A DNA stretch of 64,000 nt from NCBI GenBank assembly GCA_951406725.2, contig OX597822.1:89156001-89220000 (forward strand). Direction: 5' to 3'. Below are positions 1,777-61,966 of the stretch, one piece after another. The stretch's first letter is position 1; every line of letters starts with the position of its first letter. Position numbers and translations under genes: made by a program. The notes beneath the pieces were generated by a model. It had not been told where the DNA came from. It was given only the letters and a program-made list of their open reading frames with translations, and did not search any database. This stretch comes from Octopus vulgaris. Its lineage: Eukaryota.

Positions 1777-1816
<40 letters not shown>

Positions 1817-1817
<1 letters not shown>

Positions 1818-2154
1818 AGTGAGGAAACCCCTTTCAGTCATGAATGACCATGGGATTGCACCTAGAAAGTTACCCCACCAGGCACAAGTCCGGGCAAGGT
1901 TATTTGTGGAAGGCTTGCAGTCGCCCATGCATACCAACCTCCCCTCTCCACACCACTGATGTTAACCAAGGGAAAGGCAAAGGCCGATACAGCTCAGTAC
2001 CAGTGATGTCACAACTCATTTCTGCAGCTGAGTGAACTGGAGCAATGTGAAATAAAATGTCTTGCTGAAGAACACAACACACAGCCTGATCCAGGAATTG
2101 AACTCACAACCTCACGATTGTAAGCTCGACGCTCTAACCACTGAGCCATGTGCC
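1817..2154 (-). mobile_element. tRNA-derived SINE
   Basis: Minus strand begins GGCACATGGCTCAGTGGTTAGAGCG...GAGTTCAATTCC (A and B boxes), then a unique body ending in (AT)n. Confidence 0.75.
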
Positions 2155-2166
2155 TTCACATGTATA

Positions 2167-2267
<101 letters not shown>

Positions 2268-2433
2268 GTTGTATACTGTCAATCTAACAAGAACGTGACA
2301 GTAGGGGGTACACCACCGTTGTATAGCCCTAGGAGGCATCGAACGCCTCCTGATAGCTTCAACACATTTTTTCCTGGTGTCCTTATATACATATACGAAG
2401 GGGAGACAAACACCCCCGGCCGCCGGAACTGCA

Positions 2434-2479
2434 TCTAGGGATGCAGTGTTTCAGGATCATTGTCCTTCATCGGCCTAGA
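2434..2479 (-). ncRNA. Hammerhead-like motif (U4C core variant) in a partially tandem-duplicated repeat
   Basis: Minus: TCTAGG-CCGATGA-AGGA caatga TCCT-GAAA-cactgca-TC-CCTAGA; 6-bp stem I and 4-bp stem II. Host repeat shows a ~70-bp direct repeat at 2261-2330 and 4391-4460. Confidence 0.55.
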
Positions 2480-2508
2480 GTAGCAGACACCGGTCGGCTG
2501 GTGATATT

Positions 2509-4260
2509 ATATCTTTATTATGGGCACGATGGCCCTAATTCAGAGGGGACATTACAAGATGGGACATGGGGTACATAAAGTAAAAATAAAATATGAAATA
2601 AAGATGAATTATATGTAATGAGATGGAACGGCTTACGAACCCCCAACTCGCAGTTCCGTTTAAAATACACTTGTACATTTTACAATTACATATATTCCAG
2701 TTCAAAATACAATTTTACATTTTACAATTTTACAATTAACAATTTTACATTTTAACATTACATATATTCCAGTTCTTATATATTGGACGTTCGTCCGTCA
2801 TATATTCTATTAAGTCCATTTGGTCTATTACATTTGGTAAATTGTCATACCGTACATAATGCGTTATATAAATAGCATTAAATATCTTTTTCAATTTTGT
2901 GAATGTTTCTTTTTCTATAACTGCACCTTTTACATCGTCACCATACAGTTTTGGGTTCAACTTCACCCTGACCAACCCTTTCCTACCTGCAAGTCTCTTT
3001 TCCACTTCTGTATCTTTGATATACATCACAAATGCTTTCAGGTTTTTTCCTGCAGGCCTTCTTCCCTTTTTACACGCTTCCAACTGCTCTTTCACTTTTG
3101 TCTCCCATTCTTGGTCAAACTCTGTCCTTGTCTGCTCTCTCGCCTTCTCTTTTACTTCCTTTTCTTTGCACGTTCTCTCTTCTTTTTCTTCTGTTATCTT
3201 GCTTTTGATTTTTTTCTTTTTTAGAACTTTCGGTGGTGATTCCACCCTTGTTCTCTTCCTATCTTCTGTTCTTTCCTCCTCTGCACTTGCTCGTTCTTCT
3301 TCCATATCCTCATTTAGCTGCTCCTCCGTTTGTGCCTCCACTGCTTTCGTTTCCTCCTGTACTTCTCCCTCCTCCACACACGCATCTTTACACTCCTCTA
3401 TTACAGCCTCCGGTGCCTTCGTCTTCTCCAGCGGGCACACATCCTTCATGTGGCCCCTTAATTTACAATGATAGCAGACTGGGGGTCTTCCCTCTATCAC
3501 GACTCTAAGCCGTGTCTCATCAGGGAAGACCAACTCCTCCGGGATGTTGTACAGGTCTCGCACGGTTATATGTGCCAGAACCTGCACCGCATATCCCCAC
3601 CACTTAACCTCTGTTGACTTCTCCACCTTCAACACCTCCACACTATCCTTGCAGTTGAAGACTACTGCCGCTAATAACCTCTCCATATTAAATTCGGGCG
3701 AAATTCTACTAATCCTTATCCTCGCTGCCCTCCTTCCGTAGTAACTTGGTAGTAAAGTCCAACTATCCGTTTTCAAAATTCTTGTTGCATTCTTTCTTGC
3801 ATTCTTTCATTTTCACTTTTAAAATATACCACCACTGTGGCATATCTCCTTCCTCTTTTGAAAAATGTGGGTTCATCCTCAATTAACTTCAGACATTCTT
3901 CTATTTCTTCCGTCTCTGCTGCTTCTATTTTTTTCGATGCCACACACCATGTCCTGTACGTTAACATACACTTCTCCGCGTTGCTTTCTTCCTCTTCGGA
4001 CGGTGTAACTCTCACGCAGTCACCCTCCCTCTTCAAACTGTCGAAATATTTTTCTAAAGTTTTCTGTTCGACCACCACTTCTTCCATTTCCAGTTCACTG
4101 GCAACCAGGCCTCTGCCTGCTGCTCTCGCATAAGTCTGCTCTTGCATTTTCAAAAATCTCCAAAAAAAATTTTTTCCACGTCCTCCAACGAACTCGAACT
4201 CACAACCTCTTCACAATGACGCACTCAAAACAAACACACCAGAATAACCAAAAAAAAGGA
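2509..4260 (-). mobile_element. ORF1-only (half-LINE-like) non-autonomous retroposon with 13-bp TSD
   Basis: GGCTGGTGATATT at 2496-2508 and 4261-4273; AATAAA just inside the 3' end on the minus strand; only an ORF1-type frame inside, no RT or endonuclease. Confidence 0.8.
2745..4147 (-). pseudogene. L1/Tx1-type ORF1 (Gag-like) protein with one frameshift near 3780-3810: RRM-like region, CCHC zinc knuckle, charged coiled region
   Basis: ORFs 3773-4153 and 2745-3776 abut; TYARAA near N-terminus, IPEELVF...VVIEGRPPV-CYHCKLRGHMKDVC (CX2CX4HX4C), E/K-rich tail. Confidence 0.75.
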
Positions 4261-4466
4261 GGCTGGTGATATTTGCCTCGACTTTATAATTGTATATATG
4301 TATACTCAGTGAAGTTTATTCACTGATTATCAAAATAAGAAATATTGAATTTCTAAATCTCTCGTAGAGACATGTACGGTGGTGGGGCGATAGAATGGTT
4401 GTATACTGTCAATCTAACAAGAACATGACAGTAGGGGATACACCACCATTGTATAGCCCCATTGTA

Positions 4467-4510
<44 letters not shown>

Positions 4511-5049
4511 CATACACACAGACACACACACATACGTATGTGTGTATATATATATGCATATATGTATATTGTATTTCAGGATGGTCCTTTTATTTATTTA
4601 TTGCTAAAGAAACACACACACAATATATATTATTAGTGGTCTAATCTATTTTATGTCTATTGTCTGAAAATCTTTTGTCACACATCTATTCTTAGGACAG
4701 CAGCAGCACAATAGGGTTTGAAGATGGGGCTGAGGGGAAGGCCACACTGCTGCTAAAAACTATGGCACACACACAAGTACACATATACACACACACACGT
4801 ACATACACACACACACACACAAACAAAGAAATAAACACATGGGCATATAAGGATACATATCTTAGAAGAACAGAACAGAGTAAGTGGAGCAAGAACATCA
4901 ACAGAAACAAAAAGTGTCACTGAAAGAGGTCACAGATGTGTGACAAAAGATTTCTGGACTGTGGACATAAAATAAATTAGACCAGTAATAAGCAAATGAA
5001 GAAAAAGATATATATATATATATATATAGTGGGTGTGTTTATTTGGCAA

Positions 5050-24470: not shown

Positions 24471-24631
24471 TCAGCAAAAAAATACCTTAGGAATGAGTAC
24501 CCAGGGTTGGGTTCAAAATTCTACCTGGATACCCGATGAAGGCTGGAGAGGAAATCAGCCAAAACATTGTGGTAACAACAAACAAGATGAGGACATGTAT
24601 TCGTCTAATGTAAATAATGTAAATAATGTAT
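24030..24631. mobile_element. Head-to-head pair of a tRNA-headed, microsatellite-linked, HHR-tailed element
   Basis: tRNA-like heads 24275-24344 (-) and 24351-24420 (+; TAGCGTAATGG A box, GTTCAATTCC B box); (ATC)n/(AAT)n linkers; HHR-like cores at 24093-24129 (-) and 24530-24571 (+). Confidence 0.75.
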
Positions 24632-24764: not shown

Positions 24765-24810
24765 CCACTACGATCGTTTCTTGTCACTTCAATGGACATT
24801 CATCAGGTGG
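24765..24810 (-). ncRNA. Type I hammerhead ribozyme motif, intact core
   Basis: Minus: CCAC-CTGATGA-a-TGTC cattgaagt GACA-a-GAAA-C-GATC-G-TA-GTGG. Confidence 0.8.
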
Positions 24811-27119: not shown

Positions 27120-30100
27120 CAACCTTGGCGTGTCAACAATCTTCAAGGAGTCCCAGCATCATTCGGAGATCTCCTCGGTTTTGCTATCATCACCAGAAAT
27201 TCGGCAAACGGGCTCGTTTCTGCAACCCACCCTGTGCATTCAGAGTAAATACCTCTACCAGTCTAGGAGGTTTAAGGGCGGCGAATGCTCCTGGTGCCAG
27301 TAAACCAAATCACCTTTTCTTCATTAATGATCGCTCAACAGGTACTTGTTTCTTATCGACACTGGTGCTGAGGTTAGTATCATTTCCGTTTCTCTAACTT
27401 CAGGTAATAGAAAACAGACACCAACTTTTCTTCAGGCATTTAGCTAATCGCCCATCCAGACTTTTGGTGAACAGTCCCTCACGCTAAATGTAGGCTTTCA
27501 ATGTGTTTTCCAGTGGATTTCCATCATTGCCAAGTTACCAACCCCTATTCTAGGAGTTGATTTTTTGCATCACTTCGGCCTCCTGGTCAGTGTCAAATGT
27601 GGCAGACTCGTTGATACATTAACTAACCTCACTGTGCATGGTATAACTGCACGTACATCCACAGTGGGTCCTCTCCTAGCTGATACGATACTATTCTCTG
27701 CCAATACCTGGACATCACTCGACTAATGTTTCGAAACAAGGACACCAAACACGATGCTACTCACCACATTAAAACGATCAGCCCACCTATTTGCTGTGCG
27801 ACCGCTTGAGGGTTGCTAAACAGGAGTTCCGACACATGTTGGATCTGGAGATTATTCAGCCATCCAGCAGCGGTTGGTTCACTCCACTCCATTTGGTACT
27901 CAAGAAAGAGATGAACGGCTGGCGCCCTTGCGAGGACTTTCAAGCTCCCAACAATTCTTCAGTGCCCGACACCAACCCCATATCACACTTCTACGATTTT
28001 TCCGGCTCACTGAACGAAGCTCGAATATTCTCCAACGTCGATCTTGTGTGTGCCTATAGTCAGATCTCGGTCGAACCTGCTGATGATTCGAAGACGGCCA
28101 TCAACATACCCTTCGGACTGTTCGAGTTCTTGTGGATGCCTTTTGGTCTGCGTAACGGCGCGTAGACATTCCAGCGCTTTATGGATACCGTCACACAGGG
28201 TTTACCGTTTGTCAACGCTTACATAGAGTAATTATGAGGGACATTTGCATCAACTTTTCCAATGGCTAGCTGAGTACGGTATTGTAATTAACACGAGTAA
28301 GTGCATCTTCGGAGTCACATCATTACCATTTCTTGTACATGTCGTCGACAAGGATGGAATTTGTCCCCTCCCCGAAAAAATGGATTGCATAGTCAACTTT
28401 CCTACACCTACATCCTCTGGAAATTACGCGAGTTTTTAGGATTAATTAATTTTTACCAGCGGTTCCTCTCTCACTGCGCTGAAGCAGCTCAGCCACTTAC
28501 GGATCTTCTTCGCAACAAACCGAGGAGGAATCATGCAATAATGCTAAGCGAAGCAGAGTTAGCCTCTTTCAATAAATTAAAGGATTTGCTAGCTAGGGCT
28601 GTGATACTGGTTTATCTAAAACCTGATGCTCTATTGTGTACTGGTTCACGCGTCTCTTTCCAGATTCGGTGGTGTACTTCAACAGTTAGTGGATGGCGTT
28701 TGGCAACCCTTATCCTTCTCTTCGAAGCAACTTCAGCCCGCAGAGGCTAAATACAGTACTTTCGAGTGTGAATTGCTGGTAGCGTATCTATCTGTCAAAC
28801 ATTTTCACAATATGTTAGAAGTGTCTGTTTTCAGCATCTATACGGATCACAAACCACTTGTATACGCTTTCAACGTGACACCTGATCGCCACTCATCTAG
28901 AGAAGTTCGTCACCTCGACTTCATCTCGCACGGATATTTGGTATATCAAAGGTTCGGCCAACGCAGCAGCAGACGCGCTCTCACGCATCCAACTCAATGC
29001 ATTGCAAGCCCAGCAACAATCAATCGCAGCAGATCAGGAAGGCAACGAAGAGCTTATTAAGCTTCGGAATTCGTTGTCCCTTAAATTCCAGCTATTTCCA
29101 CTACCTTCTTCTGCCGGTCATATGTGGTGCGATACTTCCATCAGTCATGAACGCCCTTACGTGCTCAACACAGAAAATGATACCAACTCGTTTTATGTGG
29201 ACGAATATTAACAAAGACATCAGCGCTTGGGTTAGGAGTTGCATCGCATGTCAAAAAGCGAAAATCCATCATCATGTAAAATCACCACTCGGCACTTTCG
29301 CAACACCTGATGCACGTTTCCAACACGTGCATATAGATATCGTTGGACCTCAACCTCTTTCTCGCAACTGCACTCACCTTCTCACCTGCGTCGAAAGATT
29401 TTCTCGCCGGCCTGAAGCTTCCCCCCTGTCGGATACTTCTGCGGAAACGCTAGTGTTTGACTGGGTTTTGCGTTTTGGCACATCCACGACGATTACTACG
29501 GACAGAGGACGTCAGTTCGATTCCCACATTTACTCCAAGCTGACTCATCTCCTTGGGTGTAAACACACCCATACAACAGTGTATCACCCTGCGGCTAACG
29601 GTATGGTTGCACATTTCCACTGCCAACTTAAAGCAGCTATCAAAGCTTACCCAAATCCTGTTAACTGGTTGGCATTCCTACCACTAATTCTCCTCAGTAT
29701 TCGCGTATCCGTCAAATATGGTATCGGATATTCACCGGCGAAATAGGTTTACGGTACCACACTGATCCTACTTGGGCAGATGATCACTCCTGTTCCTCCA
29801 CAGCATTTTCCTGATCCAACAACATATGTACATCGTCTCCGAACACACATGTCCCATGACCTACCTAATGGCTCTCGTTCCCATAACGTCGGCACGTATG
29901 TCCCATCGGACATGAATCAATGGACGCACGTTTTTGCCCAGAACGATGGAATACCATCACAACTTCGCCCACTGTACTCAGGTCCCAACAGGGTACTTCA
30001 GAGAAAAGAAATGTTTCATCATCGACATAAATGGAAAGAAAAACTATCAGCATTGATCGCCTTAAGAAAGCTATCATAAGTTTCAACTCAGCATCATCAG

Positions 30101-45639: not shown

Positions 45640-47335
45640 AGGGTGTGATTTGAGGACTATTTGGTTGCTAACCTTACAGATATGTTTCGATGAAACAGCT
45701 AAGTTGTTATCGAAAATTTTCAGTGAAAGAAATTCACTGTTCAATACTCGTTGGCAATGCTTAAATTTAGTTTTAAAAAATGAAGATTTCGTCACTTATG
45801 CTGAGGTCGTTAACAAAGAATGTGAAAAATTCAAATTAAATGAATTAACCCCGGATTTGTTCAAATGTCTAATTTTTGTTCAAGAGTCAACAGTCAGAAA
45901 AGATGCTGATATACGTTCCCGTATGTTAACAAAATTAGAACAGGACCAAAAATTAACTCTACAGGCAGTGGCTGAAGAATGCCAGAGGATTATAAATTTA
46001 AGATATGATGCGGATAAAAATGAAGAAAAAGATTGCTCTCAGATACAATGTGTGTCGACCTGAAACGGATAAGAAAAAAGAAAAAACGAACGTCAAGACC
46101 AAATCTATGCTATGGTTGCGGAGATTTACATTTTAAAAGTAATTGTCCTTTTAAAAACCGTAAATGTTTTGATTGTGGAAAAATCGGACATAAAAGCTCA
46201 CATTGTATAGCGAAATAAAAAAATGGGTCAAATTAAAAATATTCTAGGAAGATTATATTGTTAAAAAAAAACGAATTCTAAATGAGGCTCAGAAAAGAAA
46301 ATTTGTGTCCATAAAAATGAATAATGTGAATATCAAGTTACAATTGGATACGAGCAGTGATATCACGATAATTAATACAGATACATGGAAAAAGATAGGG
46401 AAACCTAGGTTAAAGAAAACTTCGAAAATTGCGTGAGGTGTTTCAGAAAAAAAAAAAAATGCATTTTATGGGCGAAATGATAAGTGTTACATTTCGTGGA
46501 AAAACCTTGAAAGCCAAAGCTTTTGTGTTGAAAAATACAACAAATTTATTTGGAACAGACTGGATGGAACTATTTCACTTATGAGACCTCCCTATAAATA
46601 TATATTTTTTTAAATGTGAATGGTTTTTCCGCTATTACAAATAAGGCGTCGGAAGATTTTAAAAAAGAAAATTTTTTTTCTTGAAGCTTTTTCTGGGGAA
46701 TTGGGTCTTTGCGAAGTTTTAAGTGAAAGAAAACGTTGTACAGGTTTTTAAACCAAAATGAATGGTATCTTTCGAAGCGTTGAAACAAGTCAACGAAGAA
46801 TTGGATAGACTAGAAGAGCTTGGCGTTATTGATAAAATTGATTACTCAAAATGGGCGTCCCCAGCAGTTTATGTAAAGAAAAAAAAAAAACACTAATAAA
46901 ATCCGAGTATGTACTGATTTCTCAACGGGATTAAACGGATGTTTGATGCCATATAATTACCCGTTACCAAGTCCGGAAGAAGTTTTCGCGAAGTTGAATG
47001 AAGGTAATTTTTTTTCAAATTTGGACCTATCTGAAGCATATTTGCGGGTAGAAGTCGATGAGGAATGTTCAAAATTATTGACAATAAATACCCGTAAAGG
47101 ATTGGATAAATTTAATCGACTCCCCTTTGGTATAAATGTAGCACCTGCTATTTTCCAACGAGTTAGGGACATTATGCTCGCAGGTTCGGATTTCGCTGTA
47201 GCTTACCTTGACGACATACTCATAAAAAGTGAATCTCGAGGTCAGCATGCTGAGCATGTTAAAAAGGTCTTTGAAATAATAAAAGAGTATTGTTTTAAGC
47301 TCAGCGAGGAAAAGTGTGAACTTTTTATGCCAAGA
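45640..47335 (+). mobile_element. Decayed Ty3/Gypsy (Mag-like) gag-protease-RT, 3'-truncated
   Basis: Two knuckles CYGCGDLHFKSNC and CFDCGKIGHKSSHC; LDTSSD protease; YPLPSPEEVF, NRLPFGI, AYLDDILI. Confidence 0.9.
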
Positions 47336-48240
47336 TTTGGGGGTCTTGATTTTCGTAAGAGCTCGTCTCTATCTCTTCTTTGTTTTCTTTCTTTCATCCA
47401 CGCTCGCTCCTCTTTGGTAGGCAACATCCTCTCCTTCCCAACATGGACTAATTTCAACAGGGAAATGAATGAAGCCCAGCTACTATGGAGAGAGCCGAGT
47501 TTGTCAACTGAGTATAGGTGGAAGCAGAGAGTATGGGGCAATGTGCGCTCAAGTGCCACTTCCAACTCTCTCTTTGATCAATCTGACCAATTTTCAAGAT
47601 GTTGCCTACTTTCCGCAAGTGCTAAATTCTCTGGGGACAGGATTGATGCCCTACCATTGGCCAACTTTGGTGGTCTACTCAGTCTAGATGAGATCCGCAT
47701 CTCCATTGCACTCAGAGTAGGAACCGACATCTGTGGAGGACTGAGATGTCATGGTAGGCCTATCAACTTCACAGGCCTTCACTGTTTGTCTTGCCACCTA
47801 AATACAGATCGTTTCGCTCATCCCACCAAGGTAAACCTAATCGTTAATCGGGCCCAGGCTCGGGTTAATATCCCCACCCAAGTTCTGGAGCCGGCAGGGT
47901 TAGGAAGAGACCAGATGGTTTTATTCTTTGTCCCTGAGATAGATGTCTCATCTGGGACCCCTCAGTCTGTGACTCCTTTGCTCCTTCCTACATCCTGGAT
48001 GCTGCGGTAAATAGGAGGGTCACTGCTTGGTAGCCGAACTGAACAAAATCTTTAAGTATCGGGACTTGTTGGTGAACTAATTCTTCCAGCCAGTGGAGTT
48101 TGAGACGTTTGGAGGGGCTGGGCTGCTAAGTTCTTGTCATCGTTGGTGGTTCGCTTTAGCGAGTTGTCAGGTGATGCCCGTGAGGGTGTTCAGCTGCTAC
48201 AACGCCTTAGCCTTACATCGCACGTGGTAATACCGCGAGC
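47336..48240 (+). mobile_element. CRE-like non-LTR retrotransposon 3' fragment
   Basis: SGDRIDALP...IRISIALRVGTDIC...GLHCLSC...VNLIVNRA...LEPAGLGR, then FFQPVEFETFGG-type RLE tail. Confidence 0.65.
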
Positions 48241-49699: not shown

Positions 49700-52600
49700 T
49701 GTAGTCTGAGACAATTTCTTCGGCCAATGAACCGATCTGCCAGAACGTGTCCTGTAGGGTGAAGAATTCGTTTGTGTAGTTTGTGTTTTGGTGAGTGGAG
49801 GTGGTGCTTGTGGTGGTGGTGGGGAGATGGGAGGTGGTAGTGTTTGTGGAATGATGGGTGTGTCAGCAAGTGGCATAAATGTTTTGGAAAAGGCTTTATT
49901 TTAACTCTGTCGATAGAAACAGACTCTTTTTTCCTCCGTGAATGTCCGCAGTAAACAGTTTCAGTGTGCTCCTAAGAACACGATGGGACCAGAGTAGGGA
50001 GGTGTGAGTGGTCCCTTGGCGGCATCCCTTCTTACAAACACGTGAGTCCAAGTAGAAATATCCGGAGGTACTGCAGAAAAAAACAGACTGGTCGCGAGGA
50101 AGCATTGGTGGCAGGTCAGCAAAGAATGACCTGAGTTTCGTGACATAAGATGCAGGATCCGCATTCGGTAAATCGACGGGTGCCAACATTTGACCAGGAG
50201 GTGCCGAAGTGGTGCCATACAAGAGTTCAGCGGAGGAGCAACCTAAATCCTCCTTAACAGCTGAGCGGCACCTCAACAGAACTATGGGGAGAAACTCGGA
50301 CCAACGATGAGGATAAGGAGCAGCAAGAATAGCGGCTTTAAGCTGGCGTTGGAACCGTTCCACAATCCCGTTTGGGGCGGGATGGTAACTTATGGTGTGG
50401 ATGTGCTGAATTCCGAGCAATCTCGAAAGCTCACGAAACAGACAAGCTTCAAATTGGCATCCAAGGTCGGTGGTAATTCTGGAGGGTACTCCAAAGCGAA
50501 CTATCCACCCAGAGATGAGGGTTCTGGCGACCGATTCCGCGGAAATGTCCACAAGAGAGATGGCTTCAGGCCATCTGTAGAATCGGTCGATGCAGGTCAG
50601 GATATAAGTAAATCCGCAACTGACTGGCCAAGGACCAACCAGGTCGATGTGTATGTGACGGAACTTGGTGTCCGGTGGCTGAAAGTGCCCAGGGGTTGCT
50701 CGCACGCGACGATGTACCTTGGAACACTGACATGGTAGACAGGCACGTGACCAAGCAGTAATAGGCCGACGCATATTCGGCCAGAAAAAGCAGGCGGAGA
50801 TAAGCTTTACTGTGGCTGCAATGCCGGGGTGTGACAGTGAATGCAGTGCTTCAAAAACAGCCCGACAGTGATGTTCAAGAACGAGGCGTCGGAGTGACCC
50901 GGTAGAAACATCGCATAGAATGGTTCCTTCAGAAAAAAGCAGAGGCAGATGTTCAAACTCGCAGCAGAAAACTGTGGTGAAGAGACGTCCAAAGAGTCCA
51001 AGGAAGGTTGGTCAGTATCCCTAGCAACAATAATCAATCGAAGCAGGAGACGACAATGCCCCGATAGGCAGGCGAGATAAGGCGTCGGCGGGGATGTCGT
51101 CAGTGCCAGCGATGTGGCGAATGTCACTAGTGAACTGTGATATGTAGTCCAAGTGCCTTGTTTCTCTGGGCGAGTACCGGTCCGTTTGGCAAAGAGAGCG
51201 AACGTTAGCGATTTATGGTCGGTGAAAATTGTGAAATCTCTACCTTCGAGAAAGTGAGAGAAATACTTCACTGCAAGATAAATCACTGAGAGTTCCTTAC
51301 CAAACATACTGTACCTCAATTCAGCAGCTTTCAAATGGCGAGAAAAGAAAGCCAGTGGCTGGGTCTGGCCGTTGACAGATTGCTGTACAACTGCGCTAGT
51401 GGCCAAAGCAGACGCGTCTATAGTAAGAGACAATTTTGCATCAGCAACAGGATGAGTAAGGAAGGATGCTTAAACAAGCTCGGCTGTAGGAGGCAGCATT
51501 ATCGGGGTGTCTTTCTTGAGTTGATGTTTCAAAAGCTGGGTCAAGGGAAGCAACTTCTCCGCTTAGTTAGGAAAGAAGCGACGGTAATAATTAATTAAAC
51601 CGACAAAATTTCTGAACTGTTTTAAAGAAACAGGAAGAGACAAGTGTTTGATGGTTTCCACTTTAGAGGGAAGTGGACAAATACCGTCGGCGTCAATAAG
51701 ATGCCCCAAGAATTCCAAGCTGGTAGAATCAAATACACACTTAGCCGGATTGATCTTCACATCATAGGAACGCAGATACTTGAACAGTTGGGTTAAGTGT
51801 TGGTCCGGAGTACTACTGGCGATTAGAAGGTCATCGACGTATGCGAAGACAAAGTCTAACCCACGAACGACCTCATCAATGAACCTTTAGAACGTGCTGG
51901 CCGCATTACGAAGACCAAACGGCATAGACAGGAACTCAAACGCTCCAAAAGGTGTGGTGACGGCTGTCTTTGGAATGTCGTTGGGTTGACAGGGATTTGA
52001 TGGTACGCGCGTATGCAAGACAGACGAGAAATCCTGCACATTTGGTAGCGAATAGCGATCTGGAATAGCGACAGTATTAAGGTATCTACAATCTCCAACT
52101 GGTCGAAAATCAGCTTCATTCTTCCTGGCCATGTATAAAGGTGCTGCCCACGGGCTCGTGGAGGGACAAACAAGGACCTGTTGGAGCATGTACTCGAATT
52201 CAATCCGGGCAATCCGGAGTTTCTCTGGAGACAAACGGCGCGGTCGGTAAAAAGACATGAGGTCCCTTAGTCATGATGAAATGACTCGTGGAATGGGCTG
52301 GATTCGACGGATGAAATGACAAATCAGTCAACTCTGGAAATGAAGCGAGTAACTGGTGGTGGAAGTCAACCGAAGCAGCCACAAAGAAAGAAGAATCCTT
52401 TCTGGATACAGTGAGTGAGGTAGTATCATCAAGAAACCGGCGTCCACTAAGTCCACAAGGAGAGAATAGTGATGTAAGAAGTCAGCTCCTAGGATGGAGT
52501 AGGACAAGTCTGCAATGACGAAGATCCACTTAAAATTCCTACGGAGTGACAAATCCAGTGTAAAAGGGATATTTGTCCGTAAGTTTTAATAGACCAGAAC
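49700..52600 (-). mobile_element. Decayed Ty3/Gypsy pol (CsRn1-like)
   Basis: ILGADFLHHY, TTPFGAFEFLSMPFGLRNAASTF, FAYVDD, IDASALA...IFTDHK, integrase HIDLVGP...ITTDLGCQF...NGIVERF. Confidence 0.9.
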
Positions 52601-61087: not shown

Positions 61088-61966
61088 TATGAAGCAAAGG
61101 TACGTGAAGCCCAGTTACAACTGCAACTGGCTATTACCGGTAAAGGTATTAGTTGCCAATTCTGTACAAGACATTGTAGATCTTTAGCTGGGCTAAAAAG
61201 TCACATTCGATCACAGCACCAGTAACAGTTAAACTTCGTGCAATGGCCATACTCGATAACGAGGGGGCAGCCATACTAATGTATGTATGTATGTATGTAT
61301 GTATGTATGTATGTATGTATGTATGTATGTATGTATGTATGTATGGAGAGTTAGCTAAAGGAGAACGACCTCCACATAAACCAAAAAAGAGGTATAAGGA
61401 CTTGCTGGAGGCTTCCTTAAGAGATGCTTGCATCTCTCCTGACACACGGTAAGGCATAGCTATTGATCGTGGCAGGTGGAGAAGGATTGTGCACGAGGGG
61501 ACAGCCACTTTTACGAAATCTCAAGTTGCTCATGAGAAAGTAAGGTGGGACGTCTGGAAGGGCATCGCTGTTACACTTCCAGAAGGGAAGGGTCTTCCTT
61601 TGATTCTGACATGCAATGTCTGTGCAAGACCCTGCCTCAGTAAAGCTGGACTCATGAGTCATCTTCGTAGTCATAAAACGAGACAGATGAGTGACAACCT
61701 GGCCACTGGTGGTGGCGTAACACACCATACTAATCATATCTGTCGGGCATGTGGAAGAGAGTGTAATTCGGCAGGAGGACTTAAACGACATGCAAAGGTA
61801 CATGAAGCCCAGTTACAACTACAGCCGGCTATTACCAGTAAAGGTTTTAGTTGCCAATTCTGTAGATCTTTAGCTGGGCTAAAAAGTCACATTCGATCAC
61901 AGCACCAGTAACAGTTAAGCTTCGTGCAATAACGAGGGGGCAGCCATACTAATGTATGTATGTATG

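Follow-up and report, generated by a model that had tools for sequence, protein, structure and literature searches.

How does a retroposon that carries neither a reverse transcriptase (RT) nor an endonuclease come to lie, apparently many times over, at one position of another repeat? The question arises at a locus of Octopus vulgaris (GCA_951406725.2, contig OX597822.1), where a window of 64,000 nucleotides (positions 89,156,001 to 89,220,000) was analysed and found to contain a 1752-bp insert at 2509..4260 on the minus strand; all positions given here are those of the window. The insert is a defunct copy of a mobile element that is abundant and of octopus type, with an ORF1 as its only open reading frame (ORF). 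We consider it probable, at roughly 0.6, that this ORF1-only, non-autonomous family is inserted site-specifically in trans by a Tx1-like long interspersed nuclear element (LINE). An earlier note on this DNA had described the element itself; the hammerhead-bearing repeat that serves as its host and the common insertion site are new relative to that description.

The limits of the insert are set by a 13-bp target-site duplication (TSD), GGCTGGTGATATT, of which the window has exactly two copies, one at 2496..2508 beside the 3' end of the element and one at 4261..4273 beside its 5' end (both on the minus strand), with no extension of the identity on either side. The chance that a given 13-mer recurs within 5 kb is about 7e-5. 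Public contigs from four runs (X1, X6, X10 and X15, from organisms A, B, C and A, respectively, X15 being RNA by guess only) were aligned to positions 2335-4390 at 80% likeness. Contigs in two of the four runs, X6 and X10, with depths of 373 and 41, connect 2499 directly to 4265 and omit 1765 bases, with an ambiguity of nine letters. Since 1765 is the sum of 1752 and 13, these contigs represent the empty site, in which the insert is absent and a single TSD copy remains. The TSD-flanked insert of 1752 bp read from the letters in the earlier note is therefore borne out both by the exact repeat and by its unoccupied counterpart.

The same contigs place the element in a family of many copies. All 30 bins across the element and its flanks were covered in all four runs and in the three organisms, including 25 of 25 internal insert bins in each run. 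Across the 25 bins of the insert, summed depth had a median of 4411, 5413, 508 and 107 in the four runs, about 1/55, 1/46, 1/52 and 1/19 of that of the host flanks, where depth gives no copy number and cannot rank the parts of the element; insert and flank are clearly both repeats. Only between one and five of every 100 aligned records continued into dissimilar sequence; of the 24 loose ends listed, none led into ORF2-like sequence or lay at the ORF1 stop. Contigs also connect the end of the ORF to the untranslated region (UTR), with joints at 2678-2739 in X10 and at 2576-2719 and 2644-2720 in X15, and none of those listed spans the whole element. The earlier note had proposed a multi-copy, ORF1-only family, a proposal that copies continuing into an ORF2 would have overturned; full bin coverage in four of four runs argues for such a TSD-flanked family and not for a one-off, and the listed contig ends and the ORF–UTR bridges include no continuation of that kind. 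Six internal joints within ORF1, each in a single contig and skipping 61-454 bases, suggest that the family includes derivatives with internal deletions. Neither the element nor its host has a second copy within the 64-kb window, and metagenome scans returned no relative and no match to the 3' junction.

The protein-coding part of the element is read on the minus strand in two frames. The start codon at 4147-4145 opens frame A (3773..4147), which ends at a stop at 3773, encodes the N-terminus and the beginning of a first RRM-like domain, and reaches 35-52% in tblastn comparisons with homologues. Frame B (3806-2745) encodes the second RRM-like domain, a CCHC zinc knuckle, an E/K-rich linker and a C-terminal domain. 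The two are separated by a short local duplication at 3797..3806, in which five letters at 3801 are missing from all other covering contig depth in four of four runs; the frameshift is thus private to the window copy, and discounting it gives, by arithmetic, an ORF1 of 465 codons. The single ORF1-like protein of about 465 amino acids that the earlier note had seen behind one frameshift accordingly stands once frames A and B are joined. So does its knuckle (3435..3476, minus strand), which is present in the sequence and has nearly invariant C and H residues in alignments, though its Pfam zf-CCHC match (E 0.12) falls below the cut-off. Among the 40 rows listed of 430 rows of contig differences, 11 of the 27 differences within the ORF are synonymous against 33% expected for transitions, and most of them are private to the window copy.

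An exhaustive phmmer search identified 185 homologous proteins at E<=0.001, and a word-based search found no match of near length. Twenty homologues were looked up, and the 12 that were named all came from octopods (seven from O. bimaculoides, two from O. sinensis, two from O. vulgaris and one from Argonauta). Their alignment contains a conserved block that extends up to the CCHC knuckle and is followed by a divergent E/K-rich linker and, in the closer homologues, by a conserved C-terminal block. In place of the broken window copy, the natural homologue P0013, with sequence identities of 26% and 41% to the first and the second frame respectively, taken as the two ORF1 parts, was modelled with AlphaFold. 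The model has a mean pLDDT of 74.9 and is confident over residues ~30-260; its top Foldseek matches are tandem-RRM proteins, namely IMP3 RRM12 (E 7.8e-5), Sxl, HuD and HuR, at TM-scores by query of only 0.14-0.24. A VIA comparison resolved two separate ferredoxin-like domains in this model (best Z 8.1, root-mean-square deviation 2.5, 73 residues aligned). Type I ORF1 proteins are defined in PMC5203782 by at least one RRM and a CCHC knuckle. By its modelled structure the encoded protein is predicted to have both, and to be type I ORF1-like with tandem RRM folds, a CCHC knuckle, an acidic/basic linker and a C-terminal domain.

The conserved C-terminal domain of about 90 amino acids (2790..3068, minus strand) is an alpha/beta fold with no named family. 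Its 93 modelled residues form a confident fold (pLDDT 82.7), for which Foldseek gave nothing at E<=0.001 and the Atlas no usable match. The best VIA match, to the prodomain region of procarboxypeptidase A (Z 5.5, root-mean-square deviation 3.4, 66 residues aligned), was tied with other ferredoxin-like folds, and no family could be named from it. A similar C-terminal motif ends the more distant octopod homologues P0007, P0041 and P0084.

Descent of ORF1 from L1/Tx1 is plausible. A Pfam scan at E<=1e-4 covered 149 of the 150 listed homologues, P0026 with its 26-fold knuckle repeat being excluded, and returned zf-CCHC in 14, RGS in one and no match in 134, with no RT, endonuclease/APE or ZCCHC3-type RBD. 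The missing RT is weak evidence because ORF2 is normally a separate frame; the longer proteins (those of 1092-3115 amino acids only) yielded no ORF1–ORF2 fusion, which is weak evidence as well. Pfam gave no match to Transposase_22, a PDB sequence search returned zinc-knuckle proteins and low-complexity matches with no LINE ORF1 protein among the best 60 of 66, and Atlas neighbours with ZCCHC3 RBDs scored 0.87, under 0.9, which makes them a lead only. The O. bimaculoides gene model P0020 has the ORF1 knuckle, linker and C-terminal domain spliced amid an RGS domain protein, and its ORF1 part is probably a copy within an intron that was wrongly annotated as exons, or else one that was exonised. 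The finding also suggests that some octopus gene models described as 'CCHC-type domain-containing' are transposon ORF1s and not host genes.

Behind ORF1 lies a 3' UTR of 236 nt (2509..2744, minus strand) that is AT-rich and contains short internal repeats. Its single AATAAA (2514..2519, read from 2519 to 2514) is followed by 5 nt and then directly by the TSD, with no poly(A) tail. Because the longest frame in the UTR has at most 59 codons, the element encodes no RT or endonuclease, and the short 3' UTR with a terminal AATAAA and no such enzyme that the earlier note had reported is upheld. The predicted fold of the 3' end did not differ significantly from shuffled sequences (z -1.22).

The element is nested inside another repeat, a circumstance overlooked in the earlier note. 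The downstream part of this host (2260..2495, minus strand, of very high depth) ends in a 70-bp direct repeat at 2260-2329, and the upstream part (4274..4459, minus strand) begins with the other copy of that repeat at 4390-4459; the two copies are 95.7% identical, and (TA)n tracts lie on either side. Without the insert the host has a period of 365 bp, and only about 1.2 units are present at the locus, which makes it a tandem of fewer than two units. Its summed depth reaches about 240,000 in X1 and in X6. Seventeen nucleotides beyond the 3' TSD, on the same strand as the element, lies a type I hammerhead-like motif (2434..2479, minus strand) with a helix I, a core at 2473-2467, a helix II and GAAA. 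In the window copy helix III and the cleavage triplet are damaged, and its hammerhead region folds with a z of -1.95 (7 of 200 shuffles), in part through a derived hairpin. Nearly all contig depth is unlike the window at 2442, 2443 and 2445, and a by-eye reading of the loose-end consensus yields a GUC triplet and a helix III of 2 bp that carries a short loop; to the eye, helix III and the triplet thus look intact in the family. The core has C at the canonical U position, a variant that we take to occur in hammerhead cores.

These features make the host resemble a Penelope-like or retrozyme-like repeat of about 365 bp with a candidate hammerhead core, possibly an undescribed octopus retrozyme or a family derived from Penelope-like elements (PLEs). 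Animal retrozymes are described as having hammerheads with a short helix III in monomers of about 300 bp (PMC7229834), and they are reported to derive from the pseudo-long terminal repeats (pLTRs) of PLEs (bioRxiv 10.64898/2026.07.22.740005); PLEs themselves characteristically form partial tandems and favour microsatellites as targets (PMC8557442). Elsewhere in the window, further hammerhead-core-like matches lie at 24533 and 63435 on the plus strand and at 24806 and 30762 on the minus strand; they are typical of Penelope fragments and come from 14 uncontrolled regular-expression matches.

Whether the element occupies this host repeatedly was judged at its two junctions. At 2507, within the left TSD, depth was 1493 in X1 and 4465 in X6, against 555-768 and 3656-4306 at 2536-2541 near the element end. 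Empty-site contigs apparently do not count at 2507, because the three contigs of X10 that are clipped at 2508 add nothing there. Single contigs in X1 and X10 depart from the window sequence at 2507, a position that lies 44 and 62 letters, respectively, from their ends. At the 5' junction, one X1 contig (depth 784) and one X10 contig (depth 80) have four insertions at 4247-4260, and because the aligner opens gaps only where the match continues, these contigs must match on past 4260. The base inserted at 4260 equals host base 2495, which implies a 14-bp TSD and a different 5' end in that subfamily; its TSD therefore seems to be one of 14 bp. At least three different 5' ends are present, those of the window copy, of the X1/X10 contig and of the X6 contig. 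In PMC4494074, a Tx1 family counts as target-specific when a single type of repeat flanks over 20% of its copies; here junction depth is near element-end depth in X1 and X6, below 10% of it in X10 and 0 in X15. The contig tables suggest that many copies, some with different 5' ends, lie at the same host base just upstream of the hammerhead, and we infer that successive copies targeted this site independently.

Site-specific insertion in trans could proceed as follows. The element's own ORF1 protein would coat its RNA in the manner of HAL1, HeT-A and Ag-Sponge, and RT and endonuclease would be supplied in trans by an autonomous LINE, most likely of an octopus L1-Tx1 family. O. vulgaris is reported to have 13 recently active L1-Tx1 families (PMC13282606), and Tx1 families, together with non-autonomous SINEU passengers, are described as targeting other transposons (PMC4494074). 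The partner endonuclease would be target-specific and would nick one site in the ~365-bp host repeat, about 17 nt upstream of hammerhead helix I; insertion in the same orientation would leave TSDs of 13-14 bp. Transcription would probably be by RNA polymerase II and start either in the host or in the 5' UTR. AATAAA is 5 nt from the element end, and the predicted cleavage site of the host follows at a distance of about 69 nt. The 3' end of the RNA therefore probably falls in host sequence and would be made either by ribozyme cleavage or by polyadenylation, the latter inside the TSD or shortly beyond it. Such an end could pair with the nicked target, which would account for a precise junction that lacks a poly(A) tail.

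Several observations weigh against this reading. The evidence for a shared junction is derived from contig summary tables, from the rows listed and under counting rules that are not fully stated, and at 2507 depth falls to 18 in X10, against 218-316 at 2536-2541, and to 0 in X15. The hammerhead was assigned by eye from the consensus of the loose ends, and Rfam gave no hammerhead match on the window copy. Insert depth is flat, with no rise toward the 3' end, which agrees with co-amplification as a passenger no less than with efficient full-length insertion. Depth shows no sign of a partner that shares the 3' end: the last bins are not above the ORF in X10 and X15 and exceed it only about 1.5-fold in X1 and X6. 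Lastly, the element has no RT by which to place it in an L1/Tx1 tree, and ORF1 proteins combining RRM and CCHC are also recorded outside L1/Tx1 (PMC5203782).

The leader of the element had been given a tRNA-like character in the earlier note, with a B-box-like and an A-box-like motif and with T runs before the ATG. The 5' UTR (4148..4260, minus strand, 113 nt) does contain four runs of 4-8 T and the motifs at 4190-4207 and 4239-4250, and its 5' tip varies among subfamilies; the tRNA-like character does not rise above chance and is not sustained. ARAGORN predicted no tRNA genes, and none of the 43 Rfam matches with E up to 10 was to a tRNA. Most of the Rfam matches that fall in 1800-4600 are artefacts of microsatellites. 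Shuffled sequences fold as well as the leader does (z +0.68). Scored against A- and B-box consensuses, its best A+B pair has five mismatches, a value equalled by 124 of 1000 shuffles, against two mismatches in the true head of a short interspersed nuclear element (SINE) at 2090-2160 on the minus strand. The A-box-like motif (4239..4250, minus strand) has three mismatches to the consensus and is interrupted at 4247-4249 by insertions in abundant contigs of three of the four runs. A 14-nt stretch (4196..4209, minus strand) that overlaps the B-box-like motif is identical to 2100-2113 in the T-arm part of the SINE head; none of 300 shuffles exceeded 10 nt, and the BLAST E over the window is 0.063. 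These 14 nt are possibly a captured SINE scrap, and a functional tRNA head is unlikely. The SINE itself is an octopus-type copy at 1820-2160, with its head on the minus strand and good A and B boxes.

Other explanations of the locus place the mobility elsewhere. One or a few ORF1-only insertions might have entered a hammerhead-bearing, Penelope-derived repeat, after which the composite, of about 2.1 kb and arranged as R-U-ORF1-HHR-R (HHR, hammerhead ribozyme), was amplified by a Penelope-like RT or by DNA duplication, with the element as a passenger. Both junctions are indeed shared in high-depth contigs, depth has no 3' excess, and the whole unit is built like a PLE, with its 70-bp partial tandem, (TA)n on both sides and same-sense hammerhead, features known from PLEs (PMC8557442). 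However, amplification of such composites does not sit well with at least three different 5' ends and one TSD that is apparently a base longer, nor with TSD copies that are identical where the host direct repeats differ by 4.3%. Empty hosts moreover outnumber filled ones by about 50:1 in summed depth in the three runs that are not guessed to be RNA, and hitchhiking of this kind was tested and rejected for SINEU-3 according to PMC4494074. On balance we hold passenger amplification to be unlikely. Its strong form, in which the real mobile unit would be a protein-coding retrozyme, is decidedly doubtful: an ORF1/Gag-like gene would lie in a hammerhead-bearing Penelope-derived repeat, the ribozyme would define the RNA ends, ORF1 protein would bind and package its own ribozyme-cut RNA, possibly a circle of about 2.1 kb, and a Penelope-like or Tx1 RT would copy it. 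If true, such a unit would combine two retroelement subclasses in one hybrid and would have spread over several octopod species.

Alternatively, targeting may be overstated, and the family may be a dispersed, HAL1-like one whose window copy entered the host by chance or through a mild preference. With the host at about 50 times the element by depth, chance insertions into it would be common; junction depth is low in X10 and zero in X15, and other flanks are possible beyond the table rows listed. Unique flanks, however, would not be expected to assemble to summed depths in the hundreds or thousands, and yet left-TSD depth is of the same order as that of the element 3' end in X1 and X6, the contig of depth 784 runs across the 5' junction, and the contig table has no position at which many contigs start or stop. 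We regard untargeted dispersal as quite improbable. That the insert arose once, through premature polyadenylation or internal deletion, from an autonomous LINE whose other copies go on into ORF2 seems very improbable indeed. In its favour, no listed contig covers the whole stretch, and ORF1s at 30-50% identity could come from autonomous relatives, but the 3' UTR is covered up to AATAAA in all four runs and bridged to the ORF by contigs, few records (only 1-5 of 100) go on into unlike sequence, and poly(A) is absent. Equally hard to credit is a tRNA-headed element, with polymerase III transcription or a structural tRNA, in which a SINE head was fused to ORF1: the 14-nt identity with the SINE head of the window speaks for it, whereas the empty tRNA searches, the chance-level fold and box score beside those of a true SINE head, the four T runs and the indel-broken A-box-like stretch of other copies all speak against it. 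Site-specific insertion in trans of an ORF1-only family remains the reading that we prefer.

Outside the element and its host, the ORF list of the window contains, by eye, decayed gypsy-like integrase, RT and RNase H frames at 28901-29746, 46877-48010 and 49896-51469. A plus-strand frame at 61453-61911 has repeated C2H2-like motifs and, again by eye, resembles the end of an RTE-type LINE ORF.

A literature search, mostly at the level of titles and listings, found no cephalopod ORF1-only family and no element that targets a Penelope-type ribozyme repeat, and neither the text nor the one supplement of the O. vulgaris repeat paper refers to HAL1 or ORF1. The family may already be included in Repbase, Dfam, the O. 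vulgaris consensus library or Bao and Jurka 2010. Since ORF1-only retroposons are already known from a few clades, the ORF1-only part of the finding is ordinary. If the shared site is real, it would represent an ORF1-only family that targets another retroelement next to its ribozyme. It would then offer a compact, high-copy system in which to ask why a non-autonomous element retains ORF1 and how target RNA at the 3' end may replace a poly(A) tail in targeted insertion.

Compared with known systems, the element is closest in its way of life to non-autonomous LINEs that have kept ORF1, of which HAL1 in the L1 clade, HeT-A in the Jockey clade and Ag-Sponge in the CR1 clade have been described (PMC5786205; PMC5753468). 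Like them, it encodes an ORF1-type protein alone, is multi-copy and TSD-flanked, and would borrow its RT. Unlike them, it resides in a cephalopod, carries a type I ORF1 (RRM-RRM-CCHC) with an extra C-terminal domain where the mammalian protein is of type II, lacks poly(A) and seems to insert at a fixed site of another repeat; HeT-A also has a target, namely telomeres. HAL1 proper has a poly(A) tail that is recognised by the L1 RT. Because L1 descent is unproven and poly(A) is missing, the octopus element is HAL1-like in its way of life and is not classed as HAL1.

For its targeting, the nearest parallels are Tx1-Mar and SINEU-3, both of which target Mariner-N4_AMi, alongside the other target-specific Tx1 families Keno, Kibi and Koshi (PMC4494074). 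The octopus element shares with Tx1-Mar and SINEU-3 an apparently fixed site in another transposon family and a TSD of similar size (16 bp in SINEU-3), and with Tx1 passengers in general a non-autonomous, target-sharing habit and possible transcription from the flanking host. Unlike SINEU, which is non-coding and has a small nuclear RNA head, it encodes ORF1, and its target would be a hammerhead-bearing Penelope-type repeat where Tx1 targets are a DNA transposon, a microsatellite or an RNA gene. The host in turn is like non-LTR retrozymes and PLE pLTRs in its ~365-bp monomer, low GC, partial tandem, (TA)n flanks and very high copy number, and like non-LTR retrozymes in its candidate type I hammerhead-like motif, in which helix III looks short; it is unlike retrozymes in having about 1.2 units at the locus and a ribozyme that is damaged in the window copy. 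Retrozymes, moreover, are described as lacking any protein-coding capacity, and the word octopus does not occur in PMC7229834.

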